NCBI GenBank assembly: GCA_030614005.1
Contig: JAUWKS010000002.1
Location: forward strand, 120,001-152,000
DNA from: Candidatus Heimdallarchaeota archaeon
Lineage (GTDB): Archaea; Asgardarchaeota; Heimdallarchaeia; JABLTI01
Reading direction: 5' to 3'
Length of the DNA: 32,000 nucleotides
In this document: in pieces, positions 1,834 to 32,000 of the stretch
How the letters are laid out: every line of letters begins with the position of its first letter
How positions within the stretch are numbered: position 1 is the stretch's first letter
The notes under the pieces: model-generated
Told to the model about the DNA's origin: nothing
Database searches by the model: none
Seen by the model: the letters and a program-made list of their open reading frames with translations, nothing else
Translations under genes and position numbers: made by a program

Positions 1834-2838
1834 CTATGTTAACGCTTTTTTCTTTTCGCTACTCATGCTAGTAATTCGATGCATCTCAGCATCTCTGATA
1901 GTGTTAAGATCTTCATCTTCTTCATCTATCGATGTTGAGACATTTCTTACTAGGTATACTTTTTCTCTGCTAATTTTCAACCATTGATTGTAGTAGCTAG
2001 TTATTGCAAGATTTACCATTAGTAGTAAGTGGTTTTTGAGTGAGTTTCTTGCATATCTAAAAGACACTACTACTCTATCTAATTCTATAGATTTGAGTAT
2101 ATAATCATACAGTTTATTGGTTGATTCTTGTCTTGCCTCTATTTCTTTTGCTAATTTAACAAAGTCTATCTTACCGTTTTCGAAATCATATCGTCCCTTT
2201 GTCAAATAGCTGGTTTTTCTGTTCATGTATGCCGCTACTTGGTCGAAGTATCTTACTATTGGGTGTAAATTATTCCCTTTTATTTTCCTCACATGATGAT
2301 TTTGACATGCTTCTCTTATTTCCTCATCATTGATTTCTACTTCTTGGAAAATCTTACTCATATGCCTCTCTGTATGCACAAAATCATGAAGCATCAGAGC
2401 TCGAAGTAATCTTTGTAGTTTCTTAGGATAATTTGTTCCCAAACCCTTTCGTATTCTGAATTTCTTTCGTTTTGGTTCTGAAGGTATTTTCTTGTATTTT
2501 TCTTCTTTATACTCTAACCACTTTACTTTTCCAAGGCCATCATTCTTTTTACTTCCTAGATATTCCTTCCTAAGATATTGTTTGATTGTTTCTTTTCCTC
2601 GAGTTTCATTACAATCTACTGTTGTTACTCTTACGAATCCTCTATATGCTAGGTATTCATCGGGTATTTTTCGTTCCCCTTTAATCAATTTTCCAACATA
2701 ACTTTTGAGTGGTTTTTCATTTGTTTCTAATTCTCTAACTATTCTTATCCAGACCTTTCCTTTCTTAAGAAGTGGTTTTGAAGCAATTATTGGTGAGAGT
2801 AATTCACCAGTCAGAGTATAGAGTGTTCTTATTTCCAT
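1834..2838 (-). CDS. Cas5-like RAMP domain fused to a circularly permuted (Cas10-type) HD nuclease
   Basis: The N-terminal ~110 aa end in the RAMP G-rich loop YLGSKKNDGLGKV. The C-terminal part has LMLHDFVH, NHH, YFDQVAA and a late SLKNHLL motif, the motif order seen in Cas10 HD domains. Overlaps the cas7 stop by 10 nt. Confidence 0.72.
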   Translation of the reverse strand: MEIRTLYTLTGELLSPIIASKPLLKKGKVWIRIVRELETNEKPLKSYVGKLIKGERKIPDEYLAYRGFVRVTTVDCNETRGKETIKQYLRKEYLGSKKNDGLGKVKWLEYKEEKYKKIPSEPKRKKFRIRKGLGTNYPKKLQRLLRALMLHDFVHTERHMSKIFQEVEINDEEIREACQNHHVRKIKGNNLHPIVRYFDQVAAYMNRKTSYLTKGRYDFENGKIDFVKLAKEIEARQESTNKLYDYILKSIELDRVVVSFRYARNSLKNHLLLMVNLAITSYYNQWLKISREKVYLVRNVSTSIDEEDEDLNTIRDAEMHRITSMSSEKKKALT

Positions 2839-3596
2839 GCTTTCAACACCTCATCCATCTCTTTCCAGAGATTTTGTTCTGATTCTTTTTCGATTACTTT
2901 TCCTTTCTTTACAGTTCTCGTCCTTGTTACTTCTTGCAAATTCACTTCTAGTAGGTCTATTTTCCCAGCACCGTTATTTGCCGATGCACCCCACCGTATT
3001 TCGGGCATGTAAAGAATACTTTTCAAAAGGAATCCTAGTAACTCTTGATCTAGCTCTTTTAGTAGTTCGATCTCCAAGTTAAATTCACCAGCAATGAATC
3101 GTTCTCTAAAATCTTGTGTGCTTCTCTTTGAATCTTTCATTAGAGCATTTCGTATTTCAGTAGATAGATGTACTTTCTGTGCGTCATTAATTTCTTCTTT
3201 GATGTTATCGGATGTTATTATCACAGGATTAAATCTCACTACGGATTGTTTCTTTAAGGACCCCATTAATTTATGTCTAATGCATTCTTCTTCTGGATAG
3301 CATGAACCATTAAGATGATACCCTTCAGGTAGTAATGGTTCTCCTTTCTGTGTTGTCTTTTTATCAGATATGTGACATACTTCTATTTCTCTTTGTTTTG
3401 CCAGTTCCATCATTGCGTGATTCAATACGCCTCTTAATCCTTTTACTAAGTATCTCTTACCCTCTTTTCCACCATTTGGATTATAGACTAATAGCAGATT
3501 TTTCATATTCCCTCTTGCCATCTGACCATTTCCAGGTTTCGCTATGGAGGTTCTAACAGTTATTTTTATTCGCTTAAACGTTCGAGAGACAAACAT
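2829..3596 (-). CDS. cas7: Cas7-family RAMP backbone subunit (Csm3/Csc2/Csf2-like)
   Basis: KGLRGVLNHAM helix, Cys-containing insertion (EVCH...GSC...ECIRHKLMGS), VVRF strand, C-terminal WGASANNGAGKI G-loop. Likely start is ATG 3596 (MFVSR) after a GGTGA SD; the ORF track start at 3608 overlaps that SD. Confidence 0.82.
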   Translation of the reverse strand: MFVSRTFKRIKITVRTSIAKPGNGQMARGNMKNLLLVYNPNGGKEGKRYLVKGLRGVLNHAMMELAKQREIEVCHISDKKTTQKGEPLLPEGYHLNGSCYPEEECIRHKLMGSLKKQSVVRFNPVIITSDNIKEEINDAQKVHLSTEIRNALMKDSKRSTQDFRERFIAGEFNLEIELLKELDQELLGFLLKSILYMPEIRWGASANNGAGKIDLLEVNLQEVTRTRTVKKGKVIEKESEQNLWKEMDEVLKAWK

Positions 3597-3708
3597 AAGT
3601 TTCACCATATTAATGTAATATATATTTAATATATATTATTTATCTATTTAAACGCTTCGCTGAGAATATTTATATTTAAATTTAATTAGTACAATATAGT
3701 GATGTGCT

Positions 3709-4382: not shown

Positions 4383-5957
4383 TTGACAGTACTCAATTGG
4401 CAGAATGATCCAATATACTTTGATGATGTATCTAAAGAAGTCAATCACTGGATAAATGCCAATGAGTTGATGGAAAATAATCGACAAGTGGAGATCTTTC
4501 TTCCAAACACAGAAACACTCAATCTTTTCCCGATCCTAGTACGAAGAGCGGATTTTCTCCGGGTAAACTCTTCCGATCGCATCCTTGCCAGGTTGCCTTT
4601 CATACAGCTTACAGAGAAGGAAAAGGTACTATTCAAAAACCAAGAATTACTCGTATCCGAAAAATTGCGTGATTACTTTTACCAATCTGATAATCGCAAG
4701 ATCCTTGAGTGGCGAGACATCCTTCGGAACTATCTTGAGCGTGGAGCCATTCCTTTACCGTTCTTCCGTTGTTATCCTGATGAGTGGGGGCTCGATTTCC
4801 AAGACCGAATCCTTGAATTCTCTCGAGGGGAAACTTTTGCAATGCCTACTAGGTTAACTACTGAGCTTGCTTATCTTTGTGGCATGGTCAATGGTGATGG
4901 CAATCTCACTAAATATGTTCTCAATATTGTTGATTATTCCATTGAAAACATTCGACAGTTAAAGGAACAGTTCGAACGATTATTCCAACAAACAGGAAGG
5001 ATTCAACTACAAACGGAGAATTGCCCAAAACTCATTATTACTAATCTCTGGGTTGCACGTTTATTTTCCTTTCTTACGGATCAACCAATTGGTGGTAAGA
5101 AGTACAGTAATTTACGTGGACCACTACTCTTTCTAGAGCAACCCTTACGTTCGCACTATTGGTCGGGAGTTATGGATGCGGATGGAAGTTATACTAATAG
5201 AAACATTACATTTACAAGTGCAAGTAAAAATTATACGCAAGATTTTATCTCATTTATGAAATCAATAAGTATTCTAGCAAAACAGTATTCGAGAAATGAT
5301 GGAACGTTTCAAGTATATATTTCAAGAAAATTTCATGATATATACAAGTCACAATTATTATGTTTACACCCTGAAGAGAAATTACAATTTAATAAATTAC
5401 AAAAGGGAATCAGTAAAAACTATGGTGTACGAATCAGAAAAAAATTTGTTGATTTTGATAAAGATAAGATGATAAACGGTTTTTTTGACTTTAGATTCCT
5501 TACACAAGTCCATATTATTGGCTTAGGAGATTTTCTTCGAATCGAAAGAGAAACTAAAACCTTAAAGTCCTTTTCAAAAGAATTAGGAGTGAGTGATAGT
5601 TTTCTCTCAATGCTTGAAAACGAAAGAAGTGCAATACCAATTGAATTATTATTGAAAATCCTTCAAAGAAAAAATAAACAATTAATGCATTTTCTTTTGT
5701 TAAATAAACAACACATTCTCTATAGAAAGGGAAGTTCCAAACCTATTAAATTAAATTTGAAACCTAACAAAGAGCTTCTCTATTTGGCTACAAAAATGAC
5801 TTTCCACAAAGCTTCTATTAGTTTACCTTTAAAAAAGCAAGATTTACAAGATAAAATTACAGACCGTTTTGGAGTTATTATAAAGAAAAATAGAATTGAT
5901 AATAAATTACTTCTCTATTATTTTACTACTTTTTGTAAGCTAAAAAAAATTGATTGA
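4383..5957 (+). CDS. Free-standing double-motif LAGLIDADG endonuclease with unknown N-terminal domain and XRE-type HTH (copy 1)
   Basis: Motifs LAYLCGMVNGDG and YWSGVMDADG, both with the catalytic Asp. HTH LKSFSKELGVSDSFLSMLENERSAIP. No intein splicing residues seen. Confidence 0.85.
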   Translation: MTVLNWQNDPIYFDDVSKEVNHWINANELMENNRQVEIFLPNTETLNLFPILVRRADFLRVNSSDRILARLPFIQLTEKEKVLFKNQELLVSEKLRDYFYQSDNRKILEWRDILRNYLERGAIPLPFFRCYPDEWGLDFQDRILEFSRGETFAMPTRLTTELAYLCGMVNGDGNLTKYVLNIVDYSIENIRQLKEQFERLFQQTGRIQLQTENCPKLIITNLWVARLFSFLTDQPIGGKKYSNLRGPLLFLEQPLRSHYWSGVMDADGSYTNRNITFTSASKNYTQDFISFMKSISILAKQYSRNDGTFQVYISRKFHDIYKSQLLCLHPEEKLQFNKLQKGISKNYGVRIRKKFVDFDKDKMINGFFDFRFLTQVHIIGLGDFLRIERETKTLKSFSKELGVSDSFLSMLENERSAIPIELLLKILQRKNKQLMHFLLLNKQHILYRKGSSKPIKLNLKPNKELLYLATKMTFHKASISLPLKKQDLQDKITDRFGVIIKKNRIDNKLLLYYFTTFCKLKKID

Positions 5958-7390: not shown

Positions 7391-7705
7391 ATGAACAATT
7401 TGAGAGAAAAGGTAAAAGAGTTTGCTATTCGCTTTCAGAGAGGACATGGAGAGCTTCGTTGGAGAGAGCGAAGTATACCACCAGATGAAATTGAGGATAT
7501 TGTTCGACAATGGGATGTTATTGACGACACAAAAGATGGACGGTACTTGTTATGGGGGGAGTTAGATAATAAACGTATAATACATATACCTTGTTTTCTG
7601 GACATGCAAACTAAAATAATATGGGTACTAACAGTTTATTATCCGGATGATGAGAATTTCACAATGGAATCTAATTATAGAGTAAGGAAAACGATAAGCA
7701 AATAG
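7391..7705 (+). CDS. DUF4258-family (RelE-like) putative toxin
   Basis: H-x-x-x-R-x-x-ER-x-I start, GRYLLWG, IHI, and a VLTVYYPD...RVRK ending, matching the DUF4258 pattern. Confidence 0.75.
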   Translation: MNNLREKVKEFAIRFQRGHGELRWRERSIPPDEIEDIVRQWDVIDDTKDGRYLLWGELDNKRIIHIPCFLDMQTKIIWVLTVYYPDDENFTMESNYRVRKTISK

Positions 7706-7788
7706 ATTGTATTAGAAACAAATTTTTGCAGTATTTTTAGAGAAGAGTATTTATTCCTCATTTAACCAAAGCTGCTGAGGAAAAATAA

Positions 7789-24693: not shown

Positions 24694-27600
24694 ATGAGTA
24701 AAGCTGTTTCTTCCACAAAAAAACTTCCTCTTTGTCTTTCTATGGGTGTGACAGAGGTGCTAGAAGGAAGGGAGAGCATAACAGGTAAAGACCTTCTAGA
24801 TTATTTTTCTTTACAGGATAAAACATCTTTTCTTACTAACACGAAAAATTTTGTTCTTGTTTGTGGAAATAAACAGAGACCAAATGACTATGAGCCTAAC
24901 AAATTCCTCGGCTCTTTTGGTGTTCGAAGAGCACTAGCAATGAAGAATTACACTCGATTGCCTGTAATTATTGTTACCAATAACCGTTTTGAAACTTCTA
25001 TGCTTATTGAGCAGTTTAATAAACTAACTTCTTGTTTCAAACTATACACATCAAAGAAAAGTCAAAGAGAAAATATTAATGAAGAAATTAAAGCGGACTA
25101 CCCGAATGAAGCAGACTTTATACTGACAACATATAGCTCTTTCTGGGATCAAACAACAAACAAGGATGATCCATCTTCAGAACAAATTATCTTAATCAAT
25201 CCATTAAGACTAAAATATATCATCGAGGATGTAGGCAAATTAGATGTCATTTTTGGCTGTATACATAGGCATAAGCGAATAAGACCGAATTATTCCTTCA
25301 TTCTTGATGAAGCACACTACCCAATTCTATCAAAGAAAGATTATCAATTCTTATTTAAAGCAGGCAATAGTCTTTTCTTTAGATGCAAAGAGAGAATGCT
25401 TTTAGAATATAATAATCCATTCAGAGAAGCTATTTCTCACCTAACTAGTGATCAATTCCAGCTATTTATTTTCACAGATCTTTTTAGGGGAAGAAAACTG
25501 ATAAAAGAACTGGTTAAAGAGTTCAAATCAACTTTTACTTATAAAATGTACCTCTACAGTAATGGTATTTTTCCAACAATTGATGAAAAATTGCCTTCAA
25601 AAGAACTTCTTAAAGAAAAGAATAGGCTTGATAAGAAAGTTTTAAGTGGAATTGTAAAACAAATACATTTATTCACAAAAGGAAGCAACACCAAAACGAT
25701 AACAGGAAAAGTAACTTACAGCGATTTTGATTTTAACGTTGGCCTCAGTAAACAAGAGATATCTCGAACGTATTCCTGGGATAAACCAAAAGAAGCAGCA
25801 AGATTCCTTCCGGTAGTCACTAAGGAAGAAGGAAGATTCAAACTTAGCGCTCTAGGAGAAGAAATATTTGGTGTGTCATCATGGTTTAGTGGTGTTGAGG
25901 ACAATTTTAGCGAACTTTTAGCTCACTTTTCTAGGATCCTTTACAAAAACAAGAAGGAAAACCACAAATTTTCCGTGAAAGAGATAATCATTTTTTATCT
26001 TCAAATGATAGATTGCAATTATGAAACAGTGAAAAGATTTGAGGAGGCAATTCCTGAAAAGTTAGACACAGAAAAAAAGAATGACCAAATGATCGCAATC
26101 CTTGAAAAGAAATTCAAGCCACTAGTTAAAAATTTCAAAAGAGTTTCAGCAAAAAAAATCCTTGGTGCTTTTGAAAAATTAATGAATACTGAAGCATACA
26201 TTTTCTATCAACAATTCAAGAATTATAAGAAAGAAGAGAAACGTTCCTGGGAAGAGAGAAGGAGAAAAGCGGTCCTAAGAAAAGCAAATTATCAGCCCTT
26301 AGCTGTGAAATTCACAGGTGATTATTATCACATGTTTTGGCAAGACGCCAAGAAGTTATTGGAAGAATTAGTTGAAGAAGGGCGACTTGTCAGGATTATT
26401 TCTTACAATGGTAGAGGAAAACCGATACTAAAGTACCTTACTCAAGAATTACTGGATGCGAACCCTCATTTCCAAAAGAATTGCGGGAACTGTCAATGGT
26501 ACAATCAACGCTTCAAAACATGCACCTTTTTACGTTTAAAACAAGCGAAAAACCCGAGTACAATGACAAAAGAAGAATTTGAATATGCTAATGATACACT
26601 AAGATTTGAAGCAACTGCTTGTGAGAAGTACATAGAAAAAGATGATTTTCAGTCGATGGAAGGCAATGTTAAGTTCACTGCTACCGTTGAGAAGTTAACT
26701 AAAGATATGAAGAATATATCAATGAGCTTTTTATCAGGAGATATTGCAGAGTACAAGTATCATTGTCTTTCTTGCCAGGAACAAATAGAAGAATTTGGTA
26801 CAGGTGATAGAATCTTCTTTCCAAGGAGAAGAATTATTTGTCCTAACTGTTCGACAGTTTATCTTCAACTAAAAGATCGGAAAAAAGTAAAAGTGAAAAT
26901 GGAGGAAAGAGATCATCAAAGAAGCTTATACTTCAAAGAAACTGGGACCATTACTGACGTTTTGAGGAAGAAAGATTCTGCTCGTGTTTTTGTCATACAT
27001 GACATAGATAGTGCTAGATTAAGAATCAACGAAGAAAATGATGAGCCACCTTATTTTCTAGTGATAGGTAAAAATGAAATAGCTCTGGATTTGGTGCAGT
27101 TTGTCTATTTTTCAGGTATACGTCATCAAGAATTAGAAGAAACAATGTGGTTACTAGCGGACCTTGATTCTGAAAGATACAAATACAAAATTAAGCGAAC
27201 AGAACAAAAGTCAAAGAAGAAAAAAGCAAAAAGTCGATATAAAAGACCCTTTTCAGCTGAAGACTATTCCAATATCATAAAAATAATCAAAAAAAGCTCC
27301 GATAAAGAAATATTCAACCATCAATTTTTGGAAGCAAGGCTTATCTCAAATATTGCTGGAATGTTATCAATAAAATATGAAATAGAAATGGAAAGCTTCT
27401 CTGACTGGCATTACAATCACCAATTGTTGGAAATGGTTGATTTGCATATGAAAGTAATTGGCGGAGAAGTAAAGTCAAGCTATTATGGAACTCAATTAGA
27501 AGCACTTAGCAACAAGCACTTTTTTGACTTTTTGAAGGGAGAAGCTGCGAGAGTAGGTCTCTGGTCAAAAGGGCGAGTGAATAGCAGGCTAGTGATAGAT

Positions 27601-28872
27601 ATGCTTAAATCCTTCAGCCAAAAGGTTAGTAGTGCTTTTTCACCTTTAGATGCTTTACTGAATCAAATGTTGCGCTCATTCAGAGTAGAATTAGATCCGT
27701 TGTTTCACAGGATGGGCATGGATCCTGCAATGTTAGGTCCAGGTTTGTTTCATAGACGAAAAACAAAATCTGATATTGACCAGCTAGGTTTTTACTTCGA
27801 CTTAATAGAAGCTGTGCGAGTTCTAGTGCTTGTAACTATTGTTAAAGCTATTCGAGATGGCACCCTCGGTTTTGATGATTGTAAATACGTACTAGGTGAG
27901 GATGGACAAGAGATCTATCAAGTGAAAGGTTCTTCCCTGGATAAATTCACCAATCTGGTTTCAGAAGCTCTTGAACAAACCGTTTCACATCAAGGGCAAA
28001 GAATGACTTTTAAACAAGCTTTTGAATTCAATCTTTTGTGCTTAAGAGTTGCTTTTGAAAAATGTCTTTCAGAGATAGAAGAACATAAACAAATTACTTT
28101 GAAAAAAATCAAGAAGTGTTTTGATGATTCACTTTTTATTTCATTTACTTTCTGCCCTGAAGGACTAGAAGAGAAGTTAATAGATTTAAATCGATTTGCA
28201 AGTAAAGAAGGAGTAATTTTCTTTGGAAAAGAACAAGAAGTTTTGGAACGAAAAGAAACAAGAGAAAAATATAGAAAAGAAGTAAAGAGTCATTGGTACA
28301 ACGAAAATGTGATTAAAAAGCTAAATGCTTTTCGGTTGACCAAACATCAAATTAAAGAGCAAGATAGAAGTTTGCTTGTTATTTTGTTGTTATTGTACAA
28401 TACTTTTGAAAGAGATTTTACAATTGATGAATACTCAACTAATCATTTTAAGGAATTACTTGGAATAACTCAAAACCAAGTACAGAGATTACTTGATCAA
28501 ATGGTTTCCAGTGGATTGCTTCTTCGAGAGAAAGTAAATAGAAAGAATTTCTACGAGTTAAATCTTAAAAATCTAAATGTTAAGGACTTTCGTTTTCTTC
28601 TTGGAGTAAATCTCTCTTTAGAGGAACATCTTCAAAGAGAGTTTATCATCAATATTCCTCCTCATTTAGAGCGAGTTGAAAAGATTATTTCTCAAATCAA
28701 ATTGCTTCCTACTAATCAACAAAAAGTCATAAGAAGTAATTTTTGGTTTGATTGGGAACCAACAGAAATTATTCGAAGAGTAATTGTTTGGGCAGAAGAG
28801 AAAGCTGTAACTAGTAAAGCATTTTTCAAAATGATAGGTGATATTCATGGTAAAAAGCAGTTACATTTTTAA
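24694..28872 (+). CDS. cas1: Giant multidomain Cas1-family integrase: degenerate SF2 helicase-like N-terminus, wHTH/Cys clusters, Cas1 domain, C-terminal wHTH
   Basis: LEALSNKHFF, SPLDALLNQML, GMDPAMLGPGLFH and FYFDLIEAVR match the Cas1 core. CGNCQW, CLSC and CPNC parallel the 674-aa Cas1. LTTYSSF and FILDEAH lie in the N-terminus. Confidence 0.82.
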   Translation: MSKAVSSTKKLPLCLSMGVTEVLEGRESITGKDLLDYFSLQDKTSFLTNTKNFVLVCGNKQRPNDYEPNKFLGSFGVRRALAMKNYTRLPVIIVTNNRFETSMLIEQFNKLTSCFKLYTSKKSQRENINEEIKADYPNEADFILTTYSSFWDQTTNKDDPSSEQIILINPLRLKYIIEDVGKLDVIFGCIHRHKRIRPNYSFILDEAHYPILSKKDYQFLFKAGNSLFFRCKERMLLEYNNPFREAISHLTSDQFQLFIFTDLFRGRKLIKELVKEFKSTFTYKMYLYSNGIFPTIDEKLPSKELLKEKNRLDKKVLSGIVKQIHLFTKGSNTKTITGKVTYSDFDFNVGLSKQEISRTYSWDKPKEAARFLPVVTKEEGRFKLSALGEEIFGVSSWFSGVEDNFSELLAHFSRILYKNKKENHKFSVKEIIIFYLQMIDCNYETVKRFEEAIPEKLDTEKKNDQMIAILEKKFKPLVKNFKRVSAKKILGAFEKLMNTEAYIFYQQFKNYKKEEKRSWEERRRKAVLRKANYQPLAVKFTGDYYHMFWQDAKKLLEELVEEGRLVRIISYNGRGKPILKYLTQELLDANPHFQKNCGNCQWYNQRFKTCTFLRLKQAKNPSTMTKEEFEYANDTLRFEATACEKYIEKDDFQSMEGNVKFTATVEKLTKDMKNISMSFLSGDIAEYKYHCLSCQEQIEEFGTGDRIFFPRRRIICPNCSTVYLQLKDRKKVKVKMEERDHQRSLYFKETGTITDVLRKKDSARVFVIHDIDSARLRINEENDEPPYFLVIGKNEIALDLVQFVYFSGIRHQELEETMWLLADLDSERYKYKIKRTEQKSKKKKAKSRYKRPFSAEDYSNIIKIIKKSSDKEIFNHQFLEARLISNIAGMLSIKYEIEMESFSDWHYNHQLLEMVDLHMKVIGGEVKSSYYGTQLEALSNKHFFDFLKGEAARVGLWSKGRVNSRLVIDMLKSFSQKVSSAFSPLDALLNQMLRSFRVELDPLFHRMGMDPAMLGPGLFHRRKTKSDIDQLGFYFDLIEAVRVLVLVTIVKAIRDGTLGFDDCKYVLGEDGQEIYQVKGSSLDKFTNLVSEALEQTVSHQGQRMTFKQAFEFNLLCLRVAFEKCLSEIEEHKQITLKKIKKCFDDSLFISFTFCPEGLEEKLIDLNRFASKEGVIFFGKEQEVLERKETREKYRKEVKSHWYNENVIKKLNAFRLTKHQIKEQDRSLLVILLLLYNTFERDFTIDEYSTNHFKELLGITQNQVQRLLDQMVSSGLLLREKVNRKNFYELNLKNLNVKDFRFLLGVNLSLEEHLQREFIINIPPHLERVEKIISQIKLLPTNQQKVIRSNFWFDWEPTEIIRRVIVWAEEKAVTSKAFFKMIGDIHGKKQLHF

Positions 28873-31800
28873 CAAGAAAGAAATCTTCCCGATTAATCCT
28901 GGTAAACCCCGAAAATGGATCACTATTCATAACCTTCCTGCTACTGAACCAAGGAAAATAACTGGTCTCACATGGCAAGAAGTACTACCTGGTTATGCTC
29001 AAGCTTTAGCAGAAGTGATCGAAGAAATAACTGGTAGTAAGAACCCCTATGAGCACCAAGAACAAGCAATAAAGCATTTATTGAATAATTCTGCTAATAA
29101 GAAATGCCTGGACCTCATAATTAAAGGTGGAACTTATTCAGGAAAATCACTATCTTTCATCGTTCCTGGTATCATCAAGCAAATAAATGAGGAAACGGAT
29201 TTTACAGTCATTTTTTACCCTTCGAAACAATTACTCCTAGACCAATTTGAAAGAGTGAAAGAGTATTTGGTGAAATTCGAGGAAAAAACAGGCATCAGAT
29301 TAATTTGTGAAAAGTACAGTGGAGATACTGGAAATACTAATTACTCTAAAGGGGTAGCTCGTGTAAATGATCAAGAGCTGAATAATTTAGAACAGAACCC
29401 GCCGAATGTCTTGCTTGCCACTTTTGACAAATTTTGGCATCATTATGAGAGTGGGAACAGCAGTCCGTTAATAAAGAAAATAGCATCTGCAAATTATCTT
29501 GTTTTTGATGAGATACATGCATTTGACGGTTACGCTGCAGGTAACATTAAGGGCTTTATTGCTATTCACAAGAAAGCTAATCCTCAGGGGCAATTTATAC
29601 TTTCCTCTGCTACTATAGCTAATGTTGAAGGATTCAGAGACGATTTCTTGCCTAATGCTAAAATAATTACTTGCCCACCAGTGAGAGGAGAACAAGTGTA
29701 TGTTGGCACAACAATTGAACACACAGTTTCACTGCTTGCAGATTTCTGGAAAGAAATGGAAAAAATGCCAGGAAAAACCGGTCTTGTTTTCCTTGATTCG
29801 AAAGAAAACATCGAATTATTAACAGACCTACTCTGTAGGAAACTCAAGCAGGATGACCCTTTCTTTGATCCTGACACTGTGCAGATGATCCACGCAGATT
29901 TGGAATATTATCATCGTAAAAGAGTGCAAGATGAGCTTCGAAAAGGAAATAGAAATATTATTAGAATTCTCATCTCTTCCTCAGTCTTGGAGCTTGGTGT
30001 AAATATCCCTAACATTCAAACAGTATTTAATATTGGCATTCCGATAACACAGAAAGATGGTATTATTCAAAGGATGGCTCGCAATCGCTCTGTTCCCGGT
30101 GAAAGAAGAACGAATGTTTTTCTGTTCGACCTTTCTAAGAAACGTGACAGTTTTTACTGGAACAATAAGGAAATCCTCAAGGACATTCTTGAAACGAATG
30201 CTTGTAACCCTATTCTTTATCCCAAACTTAACCCGAAGATATTGGCGGGGCAAATTATCTTGCACCTTAGATACGGTATTAATGACTTTGGAGAGATAAT
30301 GCAATTCTTCCTTGATCAAGGACCACAAGTTTATCGCTTAGCAAGACAACAATACACTAAACTTGTTAGTTTAAATGTCCTGAAAAAAAGCAGCGATGGT
30401 AAAGTTCTCTTCACAAGCCAAGGAGAAAAAAAGCTAAAAGTGCAAGCAAAAAAGAAAAATCATCTTGTTCCGTTCTCCATACGAGCTATTAAAAATAATT
30501 GGTCTATTAAGAAAAAATTTGGAGAAAGTTCTTACTGGCATGAAAATAGAAAATCTAGTCTTGGTAAGATCTCTACCAAGGATGTTTTAAAGAAAGGATT
30601 GCCTGACAATATTATTACTCGTAACAAAAAACAGTATCTTGTTACGGATAAAGATCAGCAATTAAGAACTATTTACGTTAAAGAATTACTTTCTAAAGAA
30701 AAAAGTGCTGGAAATTTTTCCGGAATAACTAATCGTTTACTTGACCCTCAGATAACTCCTGGTGTTTTCTCTAAGAAAGTTAAAGGAACAAAAATAGTTG
30801 ACATTAGTTTTGGTCAAGTTTCAATTAAGCAACAACCTTTAGCTATTGTTAACTCTAATCCCGAAAAAATTAGTTCTAATAATACTCATGTAAAGGATAA
30901 CAAGAACTTTTTTTGGCAAGAATTAACCCCAAAACGCTCGGAAGAATTGGCTAATACTGAAAAGTCAGATGGATTAGCCATTACATTAACTTCTGATATT
31001 CCAAAACCAAAAGAACTTACAACTAAGAAATTACTAGAATATTTTGGGCGCGTCCTACAAGTTGAGATTGAAACCGTTCTTTCAATTCCAGGTAGTGAAT
31101 TCGCACTTGCGATTAATACTAATCAATTAGCAATTTATGATAAAGGAGACCCAAATGGAAACTCAGAGTATTTGTTTAGTCATTTACAAAAAGTCGCTGC
31201 TCGAACGCTCAAAAGATTGACAGATTGTTCTTGTGAAAATGGTTGCAAAAATTGTTATGGTGAAATTCTTGGCTTATTTCCTAAAGGAGTAAAAGAATCA
31301 CTAAAAATACTTTTCAAGGATTTAACGCTGATTTCTGAAGTGGAGTTTGATGATGAATTGTTGCATGAAATCAATCCTGAGCAAATGAATTTCAAAGAAA
31401 ACAGAATTATTGCTTTTTCAGATATTCATCTTACAAACAAGCTTTGTTTCCAGGAAGAATTTTTCGAAGCGCTCAAAGAGCAGAGTAAACAAGCTGATAT
31501 TATCATCATCAATGGTGATTTATTAGATACTATTTCAGAAGATAGTTATCAGGCTTTTAGTGAATTCAAAAGCATGGCTATACGTGAAGGTTTTTGGTCG
31601 AAACTAGTTCTGATACGCAGTTCTTCTATTCATGACGGCAATCTTGAGCAATTCACAGGTTTCCTCCATCAAGATTATGTTGAAGTTGAGATCGGTTCTG
31701 AACAAGTATTATTCGTCCACGGAAATAGGATCGGCATAAATCCTAGTTTAGTAGATAAAACAAGTATAGGAAAAGCTGTCTTTGAAGCAAAAAAGGCTTT

Positions 31801-32000
31801 AATAAAGCCGGGCAAGATTTGGCTTCCTGTTATTCTCCCTGAAACTCATCTTGTTATTGGCCATGTTCATCTCCGATTTTATAATGAACGCTTTCGAGTT
31901 TATGGTTCTGGTCACTGGACAAAAAAAGGTGACCCTTACAATCAACGATGCATGATAATTCTTGACCCTAATTCTTTAGATGTGCCAAAAATCGTTTCAT
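28847..32000 (+). CDS. DEAD/DEAH helicase with DUF1998 (YprA/Hrq1-like) fused to a calcineurin-like metallophosphoesterase; 3'-truncated by the window and absent from the ORF track
   Basis: ATG 28847 after a GGTGA SD, overlapping the cas1 end. Checked in one frame: PYEHQ, GGTYSGKS, VFDEIH (29507), SSAT, CSCENGCKNC (31226), FSDIH (31421), NGD, VHGN, GHVH (31862). No stop seen in the segments I translated; at least 1051 aa. Confidence 0.88.
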   Translation, partial: MVKSSYIFNKKEIFPINPGKPRKWITIHNLPATEPRKITGLTWQEVLPGYAQALAEVIEEITGSKNPYEHQEQAIKHLLNNSANKKCLDLIIKGGTYSGKSLSFIVPGIIKQINEETDFTVIFYPSKQLLLDQFERVKEYLVKFEEKTGIRLICEKYSGDTGNTNYSKGVARVNDQELNNLEQNPPNVLLATFDKFWHHYESGNSSPLIKKIASANYLVFDEIHAFDGYAAGNIKGFIAIHKKANPQGQFILSSATIANVEGFRDDFLPNAKIITCPPVRGEQVYVGTTIEHTVSLLADFWKEMEKMPGKTGLVFLDSKENIELLTDLLCRKLKQDDPFFDPDTVQMIHADLEYYHRKRVQDELRKGNRNIIRILISSSVLELGVNIPNIQTVFNIGIPITQKDGIIQRMARNRSVPGERRTNVFLFDLSKKRDSFYWNNKEILKDILETNACNPILYPKLNPKILAGQIILHLRYGINDFGEIMQFFLDQGPQVYRLARQQYTKLVSLNVLKKSSDGKVLFTSQGEKKLKVQAKKKNHLVPFSIRAIKNNWSIKKKFGESSYWHENRKSSLGKISTKDVLKKGLPDNIITRNKKQYLVTDKDQQLRTIYVKELLSKEKSAGNFSGITNRLLDPQITPGVFSKKVKGTKIVDISFGQVSIKQQPLAIVNSNPEKISSNNTHVKDNKNFFWQELTPKRSEELANTEKSDGLAITLTSDIPKPKELTTKKLLEYFGRVLQVEIETVLSIPGSEFALAINTNQLAIYDKGDPNGNSEYLFSHLQKVAARTLKRLTDCSCENGCKNCYGEILGLFPKGVKESLKILFKDLTLISEVEFDDELLHEINPEQMNFKENRIIAFSDIHLTNKLCFQEEFFEALKEQSKQADIIIINGDLLDTISEDSYQAFSEFKSMAIREGFWSKLVLIRSSSIHDGNLEQFTGFLHQDYVEVEIGSEQVLFVHGNRIGINPSLVDKTSIGKAVFEAKKALIKPGKIWLPVILPETHLVIGHVHLRFYNERFRVYGSGHWTKKGDPYNQRCMIILDPNSLDVPKIVS

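Follow-up and report, generated by a model that had tools for sequence, protein, structure and literature searches.

Cas1 writes the memory of CRISPR systems and is thought to be derived from a transposase, and TnpB is the ancestor of Cas12. Both kinds of protein are encoded in a 32,000-nucleotide (nt) stretch of DNA from a Candidatus Heimdallarchaeota archaeon (contig JAUWKS010000002.1, positions 120,001 to 152,000 of the forward strand), referred to below as the window, where the Cas1-like protein is 1392 amino acids (aa) long and begins with what resembles a helicase. What does such a protein do, and why is it encoded in one unit with TnpB? The giant Cas1-family protein (P0001, "aCas1" type; window positions 24694-28872, plus strand), recognized from its open reading frame (ORF), its homologues and its predicted folds, is, on a slight balance of probability, a CRISPR-independent and highly diverged integrase, which would move the 11.1-kb TnpB unit that encodes it as well as a set of mini-elements.

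The length of the ORF is not accidental. Eighteen homologues of the 1392-aa protein emerged from a search of 5.8 billion proteins, and those bearing names come from metagenome-assembled genomes of Heimdallarchaeota. The 17 homologues that were aligned derive from differing assemblies and sources, are 1367-1392 aa long and 32-78% identical, and are colinear with one another from end to end. The family is narrow in range: a survey of 399 genomes of the phylum found it in one genus only, that of the window, where eight of the ten other species have it. Contigs of four public cold-seep runs span the gene at an identity of at least 99%, with no differences listed. The original prediction, made from the letters of the DNA alone, had described a Cas1 fused to an apparently inactivated superfamily 2 (SF2) helicase-like domain and had named an assembly fusion as the finding that would overturn it. 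An assembly fusion is ruled out because the 17 homologues are colinear over their whole length, and the ORF is evidently not a chance frame either. That the ORF is an artifact of assembly or gene calling, or a functionless gene in decay, is scarcely conceivable: the paralogous copy on contig C8, which belongs to a second subfamily described below, does carry three in-frame stops, yet the catalytic and zinc-binding residues of the giant family are invariant, and both the homologues and the cold-seep contigs speak for an intact gene.

The amino-terminal part of the protein was modeled with AlphaFold2 (AF2) as residues 1-535, with moderate confidence (mean pLDDT 73.7). The motif strings that had been pointed out earlier, VIIVTNN (aa 91-97), FILTTY (aa 142-147) and FILDEAH (aa 202-208), are present, and in the model each of them lies on a beta strand (residues 91-95, 142-146 and 199-205) of a single RecA-like alpha/beta domain. 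This degenerate SF2 RecA1-like domain, assigned from the model, from structural alignment with VIA-align and from conservation in the family, occupies approximately aa 45-235 (24826-25398, plus strand), its strands falling between residues 53 and 229. It is followed by a helical and winged-helix region (aa 250-535; 25441-26298, plus strand), which in the model sits where Hel308 has its winged-helix and ratchet domains. A Foldseek search of the PDB with the amino-terminal model matched SF2 helicases only, namely DHX36, MLE, the PolQ helicase, Brr2, Hel308 and the helicase-like domain of XPF, with a best E-value of 3.6e-5. When superimposed on Hel308 (2p6r_A) with VIA-align, the model gave a Z-score of 20.1 and a root-mean-square deviation of 3.7 over 273 aligned residues, these being just the matched part of a span of residues 11-400 in the model and 6-600 in Hel308. 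The Brr2, Hjm and PolQ helicases gave Z-scores of 17-19. The RecA-like fold, the absence of which would have spoken against the original prediction, is therefore found by the AF2 model, Foldseek and VIA-align alike.

The motifs of this domain are decayed. The Walker A motif (GxxxxGK[ST]) was not found, as had been noted before, and the loop that follows strand 1, GNKQRPNDYEPN, is variable across the 17-sequence alignment. D205 is the sole invariant residue of motif II; in divergent members of the family other residues stand in place of E206 and H208, DEA becoming DSA or DAN. A second RecA domain is not seen in the AF2 model (mean pLDDT 74), which between residues 230 and 374 shows four helices, a low-confidence stretch and not one beta strand; nor was Helicase_C found in the protein by Pfam. 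The amino-terminus is accordingly modeled as a remnant of a Ski2/Hel308-type helicase, consisting of RecA1 and the winged-helix/helical region and lacking RecA2. Because there is no Walker A motif, motif II has decayed and a second RecA domain is missing, the remnant is predicted not to be an active helicase.

The remainder of the protein was modeled as residues 536-1392 (pLDDT 73.7). It starts with a winged helix-turn-helix (wHTH, aa 538-594) and two Cys4 zinc modules (26305-26862, plus strand), which were delineated from the secondary structure of the model, from invariant cysteines and from paralogy with a 674-aa protein encoded elsewhere in the window. Eight cysteines are invariant in the 17 aligned sequences: C597, C600, C610 and C643 in the first module and C691, C694, C716 and C719 in the second. 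The wHTH, CxxCQW and zinc-ribbon block (aa 554-706) matches residues 52-217 of the 674-aa protein in BLASTP with an E-value of 3e-4. This resemblance had been seen already in the original prediction; it extends to the Cas1 core, of which aa 947-1138 match residues 437-632 with an E-value of 1e-5. Judged by these alignments, the 674-aa protein is a paralogue of the giant Cas1 in both regions. Close to the carboxy-terminus there is, as foreseen, another winged helix (aa 1220-1292; 28351-28569, plus strand), which VIA-align relates to the wHTH domains of DsrD and Zalpha (Z about 8.5) and which gives weak matches to HTH families.

Between the zinc modules and this winged helix lies a complete Cas1 fold (26968-28158, plus strand), composed of an amino-terminal beta domain (aa 759-835) and an alpha-helical catalytic domain (aa 848-1155) and assigned from Foldseek, VIA-align, invariant residues and motif alignment. 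Every top Foldseek match of this region is a Cas1, the best being the casposase 6opm_C with an E-value of 9.6e-9. VIA-align gave Z-scores of 19.9 for Archaeoglobus fulgidus Cas1 (4n06_B; 273 residues aligned, residues 224-620 of the model), 19.6 for the RT-Cas1 7kft_E and 18.7 for the casposase 6opm_B, and the matches to Cas1 and casposase extend over both domains, that is, over about 250-273 residues (759-1155 of the protein). E936, H1020, D1036 and E1039 are invariant in the 17 sequences and in register with the E, GxxH and DxxE motifs of those relatives that pass Pfam Cas_Cas1; in an alignment of the superfamily the E (YEG/LEA), SRxxR...N, GxxH and DxxE motifs all line up. E936, H1020 and D1036/E1039 would correspond to E141, H208 and D218/D221 of the Escherichia coli enzyme, according to the Cas1 motif pattern quoted from PMC4046053. 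Since the four residues are invariant and the motifs in register, the Cas1 of the giant protein is very likely to be catalytically competent. A complex prediction with two copies of the Cas1 region scored 0.01, below the mark, which is evidence neither for nor against a dimer.

Structure and motif alignment thus uphold the clear Cas1 core of the original prediction, although it is invisible to sequence-family searches: neither Pfam (PF01867) nor NCBIfam detected Cas1 in P0001, and P0001 alone and a profile of its Cas1 region found no Cas1 match among the PDB sequences. In a profile search covering 1.84 billion representatives, 36 proteins reached E-values of 1e-3 or below, and all the named ones belong to Asgard archaea. 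Three distant relatives among them, P0043, P0046 and P0050, pass Pfam Cas_Cas1, and the Cas1 assignment is therefore a transitive one, made through predicted structure and these Pfam-positive relatives. In P0043, P0045 and P0050, which are about 1140-1170 aa long, the DEAD and Helicase_C domains are intact, and P0050 has a wHTH besides. When the amino-terminal alignment was compared by profile with the intact helicase of P0050, no significant similarity emerged, so that a common origin of the dead and the live helicase domains stays unsupported. The fusion of a Cas1 to an inactivated SF2 helicase-like domain itself is borne out by the Hel308-type fold, the decayed motifs and the complete Cas1 fold.

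The genome to which the window belongs (G000) comprises 3.6 Mb and is 90% complete. A six-frame search with PF01867 found no canonical Cas1 in it, a simple k-mer finder detected no spaced-repeat CRISPR array, and the window is free of tandem repeats. No CRISPR adaptation module was found in the sense that neither an array nor a canonical Cas1 was detected; no search aimed at Cas2 was made. Y1 TnpA (PF01797) was found neither in the element described below nor in the genome, and a serine-recombinase TnpA was not found in the genome.

The giant Cas1 is encoded inside a mobile element of 11.1 kb, a setting that the original prediction did not mention. Apart from its own gene the element has three others, which code for TnpB, a LAGLIDADG-HTH protein and a helicase-phosphoesterase. 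The end on the TnpB side ("RE", 20902-20932) consists of GTTCCTTTTTT and the 18-mer TATGGACAAATAGGACAT (20915-20932). The reverse complement of this 18-mer sits 38 nt beyond the end of the window, at 32038-32055, and the opposite terminus is near 32073-32075 (G000:C9:152038-152075), where the 18-mer is followed by ...CAACAGTTGA; the exact junctions were taken from an empty site. Alignment of all copies places the true ends outside the 18-mers. The ends are asymmetric, reading, on the tnpB strand, ...GGAACGG on the TnpB side and, on the other side, (N)NN(C/A)AACTG... directly after AGGG, and the 18-bp inverted repeats are subterminal, at distances of 11 and about 18-20 nt from the termini. Every copy is flanked by ...AGGG at the far end and has ...GGAACGG followed by T at the TnpB end. 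The same pair of 18-bp inverted repeats brackets the related module of locus L001, so that repeats and extended ends are common to two species.

The insertion site of L001 is empty in the genome of the window (contig C99, near position 2071). The flanks are contiguous there, reading GAGTTAACCCTAATTC, and therefore the whole 11.1-kb unit was inserted as one piece. At the filled site the left junction is GAGTTAACC followed by GTTCC..., and the right junction is ...CAGTTTC followed by AACCCTAATTC. Comparison of empty and filled site allows a target duplication of at most 4 nt (AACC), a figure that comes from a single paired junction and is ambiguous over these 4 nt. The copy in the window lies inside the gene of a 283-aa membrane protein, which is intact in a sister species (G081:C17). 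The split gene occupies approximately 20400-20900 of the window and G000:C9:152076-152900, and about 310 bp of it have been lost. An in-frame rejoining of the gene with a TT duplication beside the 18-mers is rejected on account of this loss and of the position of the true ends outside the 18-mers. In the contigs of the four cold-seep DNA runs (a 14-kb region spanning both junctions, depth about 4) no joint across the element and no circle junction was found, and the loose contig ends at 18-mers in these runs stem from other copies. No RNA run was found that contains the element stretch.

Mini-elements of about 290-330 bp with both ends of the 11-kb element occur at no fewer than ten contig ends of genome G000 (for example C5:1-340 and C124:1-340, and on C1, C26, C30, C39, C45, C66, C75, C76, C85 and C126). 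About 140 bp of their sequence is shared with the omega-RNA region at the 3' end of tnpB, and their core is GC-rich and omega-RNA-like. The mini-elements break the assembly, and two sequence subtypes are seen at the TnpB-side end.

Such scaffolds could also be read as the substrates of an adaptation-like enzyme, with Cas1 inserting or exchanging guide segments next to omega-RNA scaffolds on behalf of TnpB, in a primitive, array-less system resembling CRISPR. The linkage of Cas1 to TnpB is recurrent, the mini-elements are essentially omega-RNA scaffolds between element ends, and Altae-Tran et al. 2023 (PMC10691335) report for aCas1 loci a hypervariable region downstream of tnpB that is bounded by the GTTCACTCA motif. 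However, this motif is absent near the tnpB of the window, which holds three matches with at most one mismatch, none of them close to tnpB and their number below chance expectation, and no hypervariable region flanked by it was found there. The nucleotides just past the TnpB-side end are conserved in all copies, unlike a hypervariable guide; no array was found; and insertion of the whole unit is seen directly at the empty site. An adaptation-like role is very improbable on this evidence.

A second subfamily of the three-gene module, with about 39% protein identity, is present in the genome in three copies, which are 86-94% identical in nt comparison and lie on otherwise unique contigs (C63:35573-44907; C48 and C29; C86, C8 and C18). 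The right boundary of these copies has no clean terminus; in two of them it is formed by 3' fragments of hsdM of unequal length. The 3' end of the second-subfamily tnpB is itself a repeat with at least 15 copies and a sharp common boundary. This second amplified repeat is located at C8:~7400-7930, at C29:3796-4282 and at no fewer than 15 contig ends (C99:1-338, C87, C104, C76, C72, C93, C70, C57 and others).

The genes that accompany the giant Cas1 are conserved. TnpB, recognized by Pfam and PADLOC (OrfB_IS605 and a Cas12f1-like TNB domain), is encoded on the minus strand at 20933-22573, divergently from the other three genes. These start with a 542-aa protein that has LAGLIDADG_3 and XRE-HTH domains in Pfam (22745-24373, plus strand), upstream of the giant cas1. 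The gene downstream (28838-32000, plus strand) begins within the end of the giant cas1 gene and stops 14 nt beyond the window; it codes for a 1058-aa protein with Pfam domains DEAD (7e-17), Helicase_C (2e-12), MZB (DUF1998; 2e-6) and a calcineurin-like phosphoesterase (Metallophos, 3e-4). By its gene arrangement, the giant cas1 is translationally coupled to this apparently active SF2 helicase-MZB-phosphoesterase. The window encodes three paralogous LAGLIDADG_3 and XRE-HTH proteins of about 525-540 aa (4383-5957, 7789-9360 and 22745-24373). Their amino-terminal 250 residues also resemble LAGLIDADG domains according to language-model features (score 0.86, taken as a lead only), and a two-domain, meganuclease-like protein is therefore suggested.

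The four-gene module recurs in unchanged order in three other assemblies, at L001, L002 and L003, where the giant proteins are 78%, 54% and 44% identical to that of the window and the flanks are unrelated each time. A LAGLIDADG-HTH gene is in the equivalent position at L001, L002, L003, L005 and C63, and TnpB stands beside the module at L001-L003, C8 and C63. A relative of 37% identity has kept the LAGLIDADG-HTH gene and the MZB protein and lacks TnpB. Of the four giant-Cas1 modules in genome G000, three have TnpB within about 1 kb, and the 3.6-Mb genome contains 13 TnpB matches in total. The helicase-type partner follows the Cas1-like gene at L001-L003 and again at L040-L042, where Cas1-like proteins of 843-1357 aa are followed by a DEAD-MZB helicase and then by a small protein, with a metallophosphoesterase match in two of the three loci. 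No TnpB is present at L040-L042, and the neighbors are AbiEii, MmeI-type restriction-modification and NurA genes. In the locus of the 1357-aa Cas1-like protein the LAGLIDADG-HTH gene is replaced by one for a Rad51/RecA-like ATPase (L042:6093-6977), which lies immediately upstream. In more distant lineages TnpB is directly adjacent to the helicase-Cas1 P0045 and to the 863-aa P0046.

Between the LAGLIDADG-HTH gene and the giant cas1 there is a structured non-coding element of about 80 nt, which is followed by two TATA-like boxes (24400-24500, plus strand). Its nt identity to the C63 copy is 78.6%, as against about 39% for the proteins, and compensatory changes are seen in 9 of 22 predicted pairs, together with a conserved TTACA loop. 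No Rfam match was found in window 20500-25000. The element recurs before each Cas1-like operon (window 9395-9500, L001:9690-9800, L002:9710-9800 and L006:5275-5375).

The first of these occurrences precedes another operon, operon 1 (window 9954-19771), with a LAGLIDADG-HTH gene (7789-9360) upstream of it. Operon 1 codes for a 261-aa wHTH-like protein, the 674-aa wHTH/zinc/Cas1-like paralogue (P0002; weak PADLOC Cas1 match, E-value 5e-4), a 241-aa protein, a 252-aa PD-(D/E)XK nuclease and a 1747-aa protein with NERD and a NACHT ATPase, and it resembles Cas1-containing non-CRISPR systems reported for Asgard archaea. It had been proposed earlier that functions divided among the genes of operon 1 are fused in the giant protein. 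This proposal did not find support, as profile comparison of the giant family with the 261-aa and 241-aa proteins showed no similarity (E-values of 0.3 and 0.26). Still further upstream, on the minus strand (1834-3608), a 259-aa RAMP-superfamily protein and an overlapping 334-aa protein are encoded; there is no CRISPR array near them, and they may be an ARAMP-type remnant.

If the giant Cas1 is the integrase of the unit, it would take the place held by TnpA in IS605-type elements and would also mobilize the short, omega-RNA-bearing mini-elements that share the ends of the element. The wHTH domains, the zinc modules and the dead helicase domain may recognize the ends, with their subterminal 18-mers, or branched DNA. 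The original prediction had likewise suggested that the dead domain may bind nucleic acid or dock the downstream helicase. The partner helicase-nuclease might unwind the DNA of the element, or process it, so that it can be excised or undergo strand transfer. TnpB and its guide RNA could cut the vacated sites, the element being then restored by recombination (homing).

A number of observations weigh against the giant Cas1 being the transposase. The target duplication, of 4 bp at most, looks more like IS200/IS605 than like the 14-15 bp of casposases, and the ends of the element are asymmetric. The flanks of the mini-elements fit zero duplication and place the insertion at AGGG^T. Around L002, L003, L005 and the copies of the second subfamily no inverted repeats were detected. 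As the genome is 90% complete, TnpA could be absent from the assembly alone. Furthermore, L040-L042 keep the trio of Cas1, helicase and phosphoesterase in the absence of TnpB and close to AbiEii or restriction-modification genes, and in operon 1 a PD-(D/E)XK nuclease and a NERD-NACHT ATPase are encoded together with a related Cas1; both arrangements would suit a defense-type cargo.

As cargo, the three-gene block would be a non-CRISPR defense or DNA-processing system related to the ARAMP type, carried on an IS605-like TnpB element whose movement depends on something else, and Cas1 would serve as a structure-specific nuclease that joins the helicase-nuclease in acting on DNA that is branched or foreign. 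The TnpB-less trios beside AbiEii, MmeI-type restriction-modification and NurA genes, the hsdM fragments adjoining the second-subfamily copies and the RAMP protein within the window are all consistent with this. So is operon 1, the exchange of modules around its paralogous Cas1 being typical of defense systems, and so is the insertion chemistry, which resembles that of IS200/IS605 in its specific target and the lack of a clear duplication. Defense roles have been predicted for some Asgard Cas1 systems (PMC8730458). Nevertheless, neither known kind of TnpA was found in the genome, yet the mini-elements have been amplified in it. The block occupies the position of tnpA exactly, within the ends of the element and divergent from tnpB; several copies of it exist in one genome, one of them decayed; and TnpB is again a neighbor in unrelated Cas1-fusion lineages, which lack a helicase partner. 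A cargo role, the main rival reading, is considered unlikely, if far from negligible.

The giant Cas1 as the probable integrase of the TnpB unit is the explanation that is retained. In its favor are the Cas1 and casposase fold with its invariant active site, the conserved partner genes, the insertion of the whole unit and the ends that it shares with amplified mini-elements, and the failure to find a rival transposase in the 90%-complete genome. A more specific proposal goes further, that the giant Cas1 and its helicase-nuclease partner constitute a new transposase machinery, which would move TnpB/omega-RNA elements by IS605-like chemistry, specific for its target and leaving little or no duplication, and not by casposase-like staggered integration; this is offered tentatively, as a possibility that may well prove wrong.

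Asgard aCas1-TnpB transposons are reportedly the subject of Makarova et al. 2020 (CRISPR J 3:156). According to Altae-Tran et al. 2023 (PMC10691335), "Asgard Cas1s (aCas1s)" replace TnpA beside TnpB in two Asgard groups, giving predicted transposons, and Makarova et al. 2020 is cited there for aCas1. Koonin and Makarova 2022 (PMC8730458) describe an unprecedented diversity of Cas1 homologues in Asgard genomes, some of them in ARAMP defense-like systems and some possibly tied to new mobile elements. The aCas1-TnpB kind of transposon is therefore already published, and a transposase role for Asgard Cas1 has already been proposed with it. The phrases "helicase-Cas1" and "Cas1-helicase" were not found in any of the papers that a literature search brought up. 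Because the general idea is in print, the value of the present analysis lies in testable details and not in a new category. What it adds is the structural assignment of the dead domain to the Hel308 type, the exact position of the ends together with an empty site, and a helicase-nuclease partner that is conserved. Cas1 and TnpB occur here in one element with defined ends; along with its mini-elements, its empty site and the intact active site of its Cas1, it provides concrete substrates with which to probe Asgard Cas1 as a transposase and the geometry of its integration.

The element shares with the aCas1-TnpB transposons its Asgard host, an extremely diverged, CRISPR-free Cas1 at the place of TnpA next to tnpB, and a locus flanked by repeats. 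It apparently differs in that its Cas1 is 1392 aa long and has a dead Hel308-like amino-terminus and in that the LAGLIDADG-HTH and helicase-MZB-phosphoesterase genes are present; no hypervariable region flanked by GTTCACTCA was found. It resembles IS200/IS605 elements in having TnpB and an omega-RNA region at one end, asymmetric ends, mini-elements derived from its ends and, possibly, insertion on the side of AGGG with no clear duplication. However, it has no Y1 TnpA; an 8.9-kb operon of three genes takes the place of tnpA, and an 18-bp inverted repeat is present on both ends.

Casposases and casposons (PDB 6opm; Krupovic et al. 2014, PMC4046053) likewise combine an integrase of the Cas1 fold with a carboxy-terminal HTH; the casposase is the best Foldseek match of the giant protein, and casposons too are CRISPR-independent, their Cas1 being encoded inside a mobile element with inverted repeats. 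In contrast to casposons, there is no family B DNA polymerase (PolB) among the four genes, the ends are asymmetric with a subterminal inverted repeat, and the duplication is at most 4 bp instead of 14-15 bp. The giant protein is four times longer than casposases, and its sequence similarity to them is undetectable.

In Hef and XPF a helicase-like domain is joined to a DNA-cutting enzyme, presumably for binding to branched DNA, and XPF (9qee_A) is among the structural matches of the amino-terminal domain. The SF2 helicase domain of eukaryotic XPF is inactive. The nuclease fold is a different one, however, and in the giant protein the second RecA domain is wholly lost. The relatives with an intact helicase and the family with a dead one would document how a helicase-integrase fusion decays until it serves as a module for DNA binding, a course also taken between Hef and XPF.

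The adaptation enzymes Cas1-Cas2/3 (type I-F) and Cas4-Cas1 are similar to the present system in that a Cas1 integrase is encoded alongside a helicase-nuclease or nuclease partner. Here, however, there is no Cas2 (not specifically searched for), HD domain or CRISPR array, and the part of the partner is taken by a YprA/MrfA-type helicase that carries a metallophosphoesterase.

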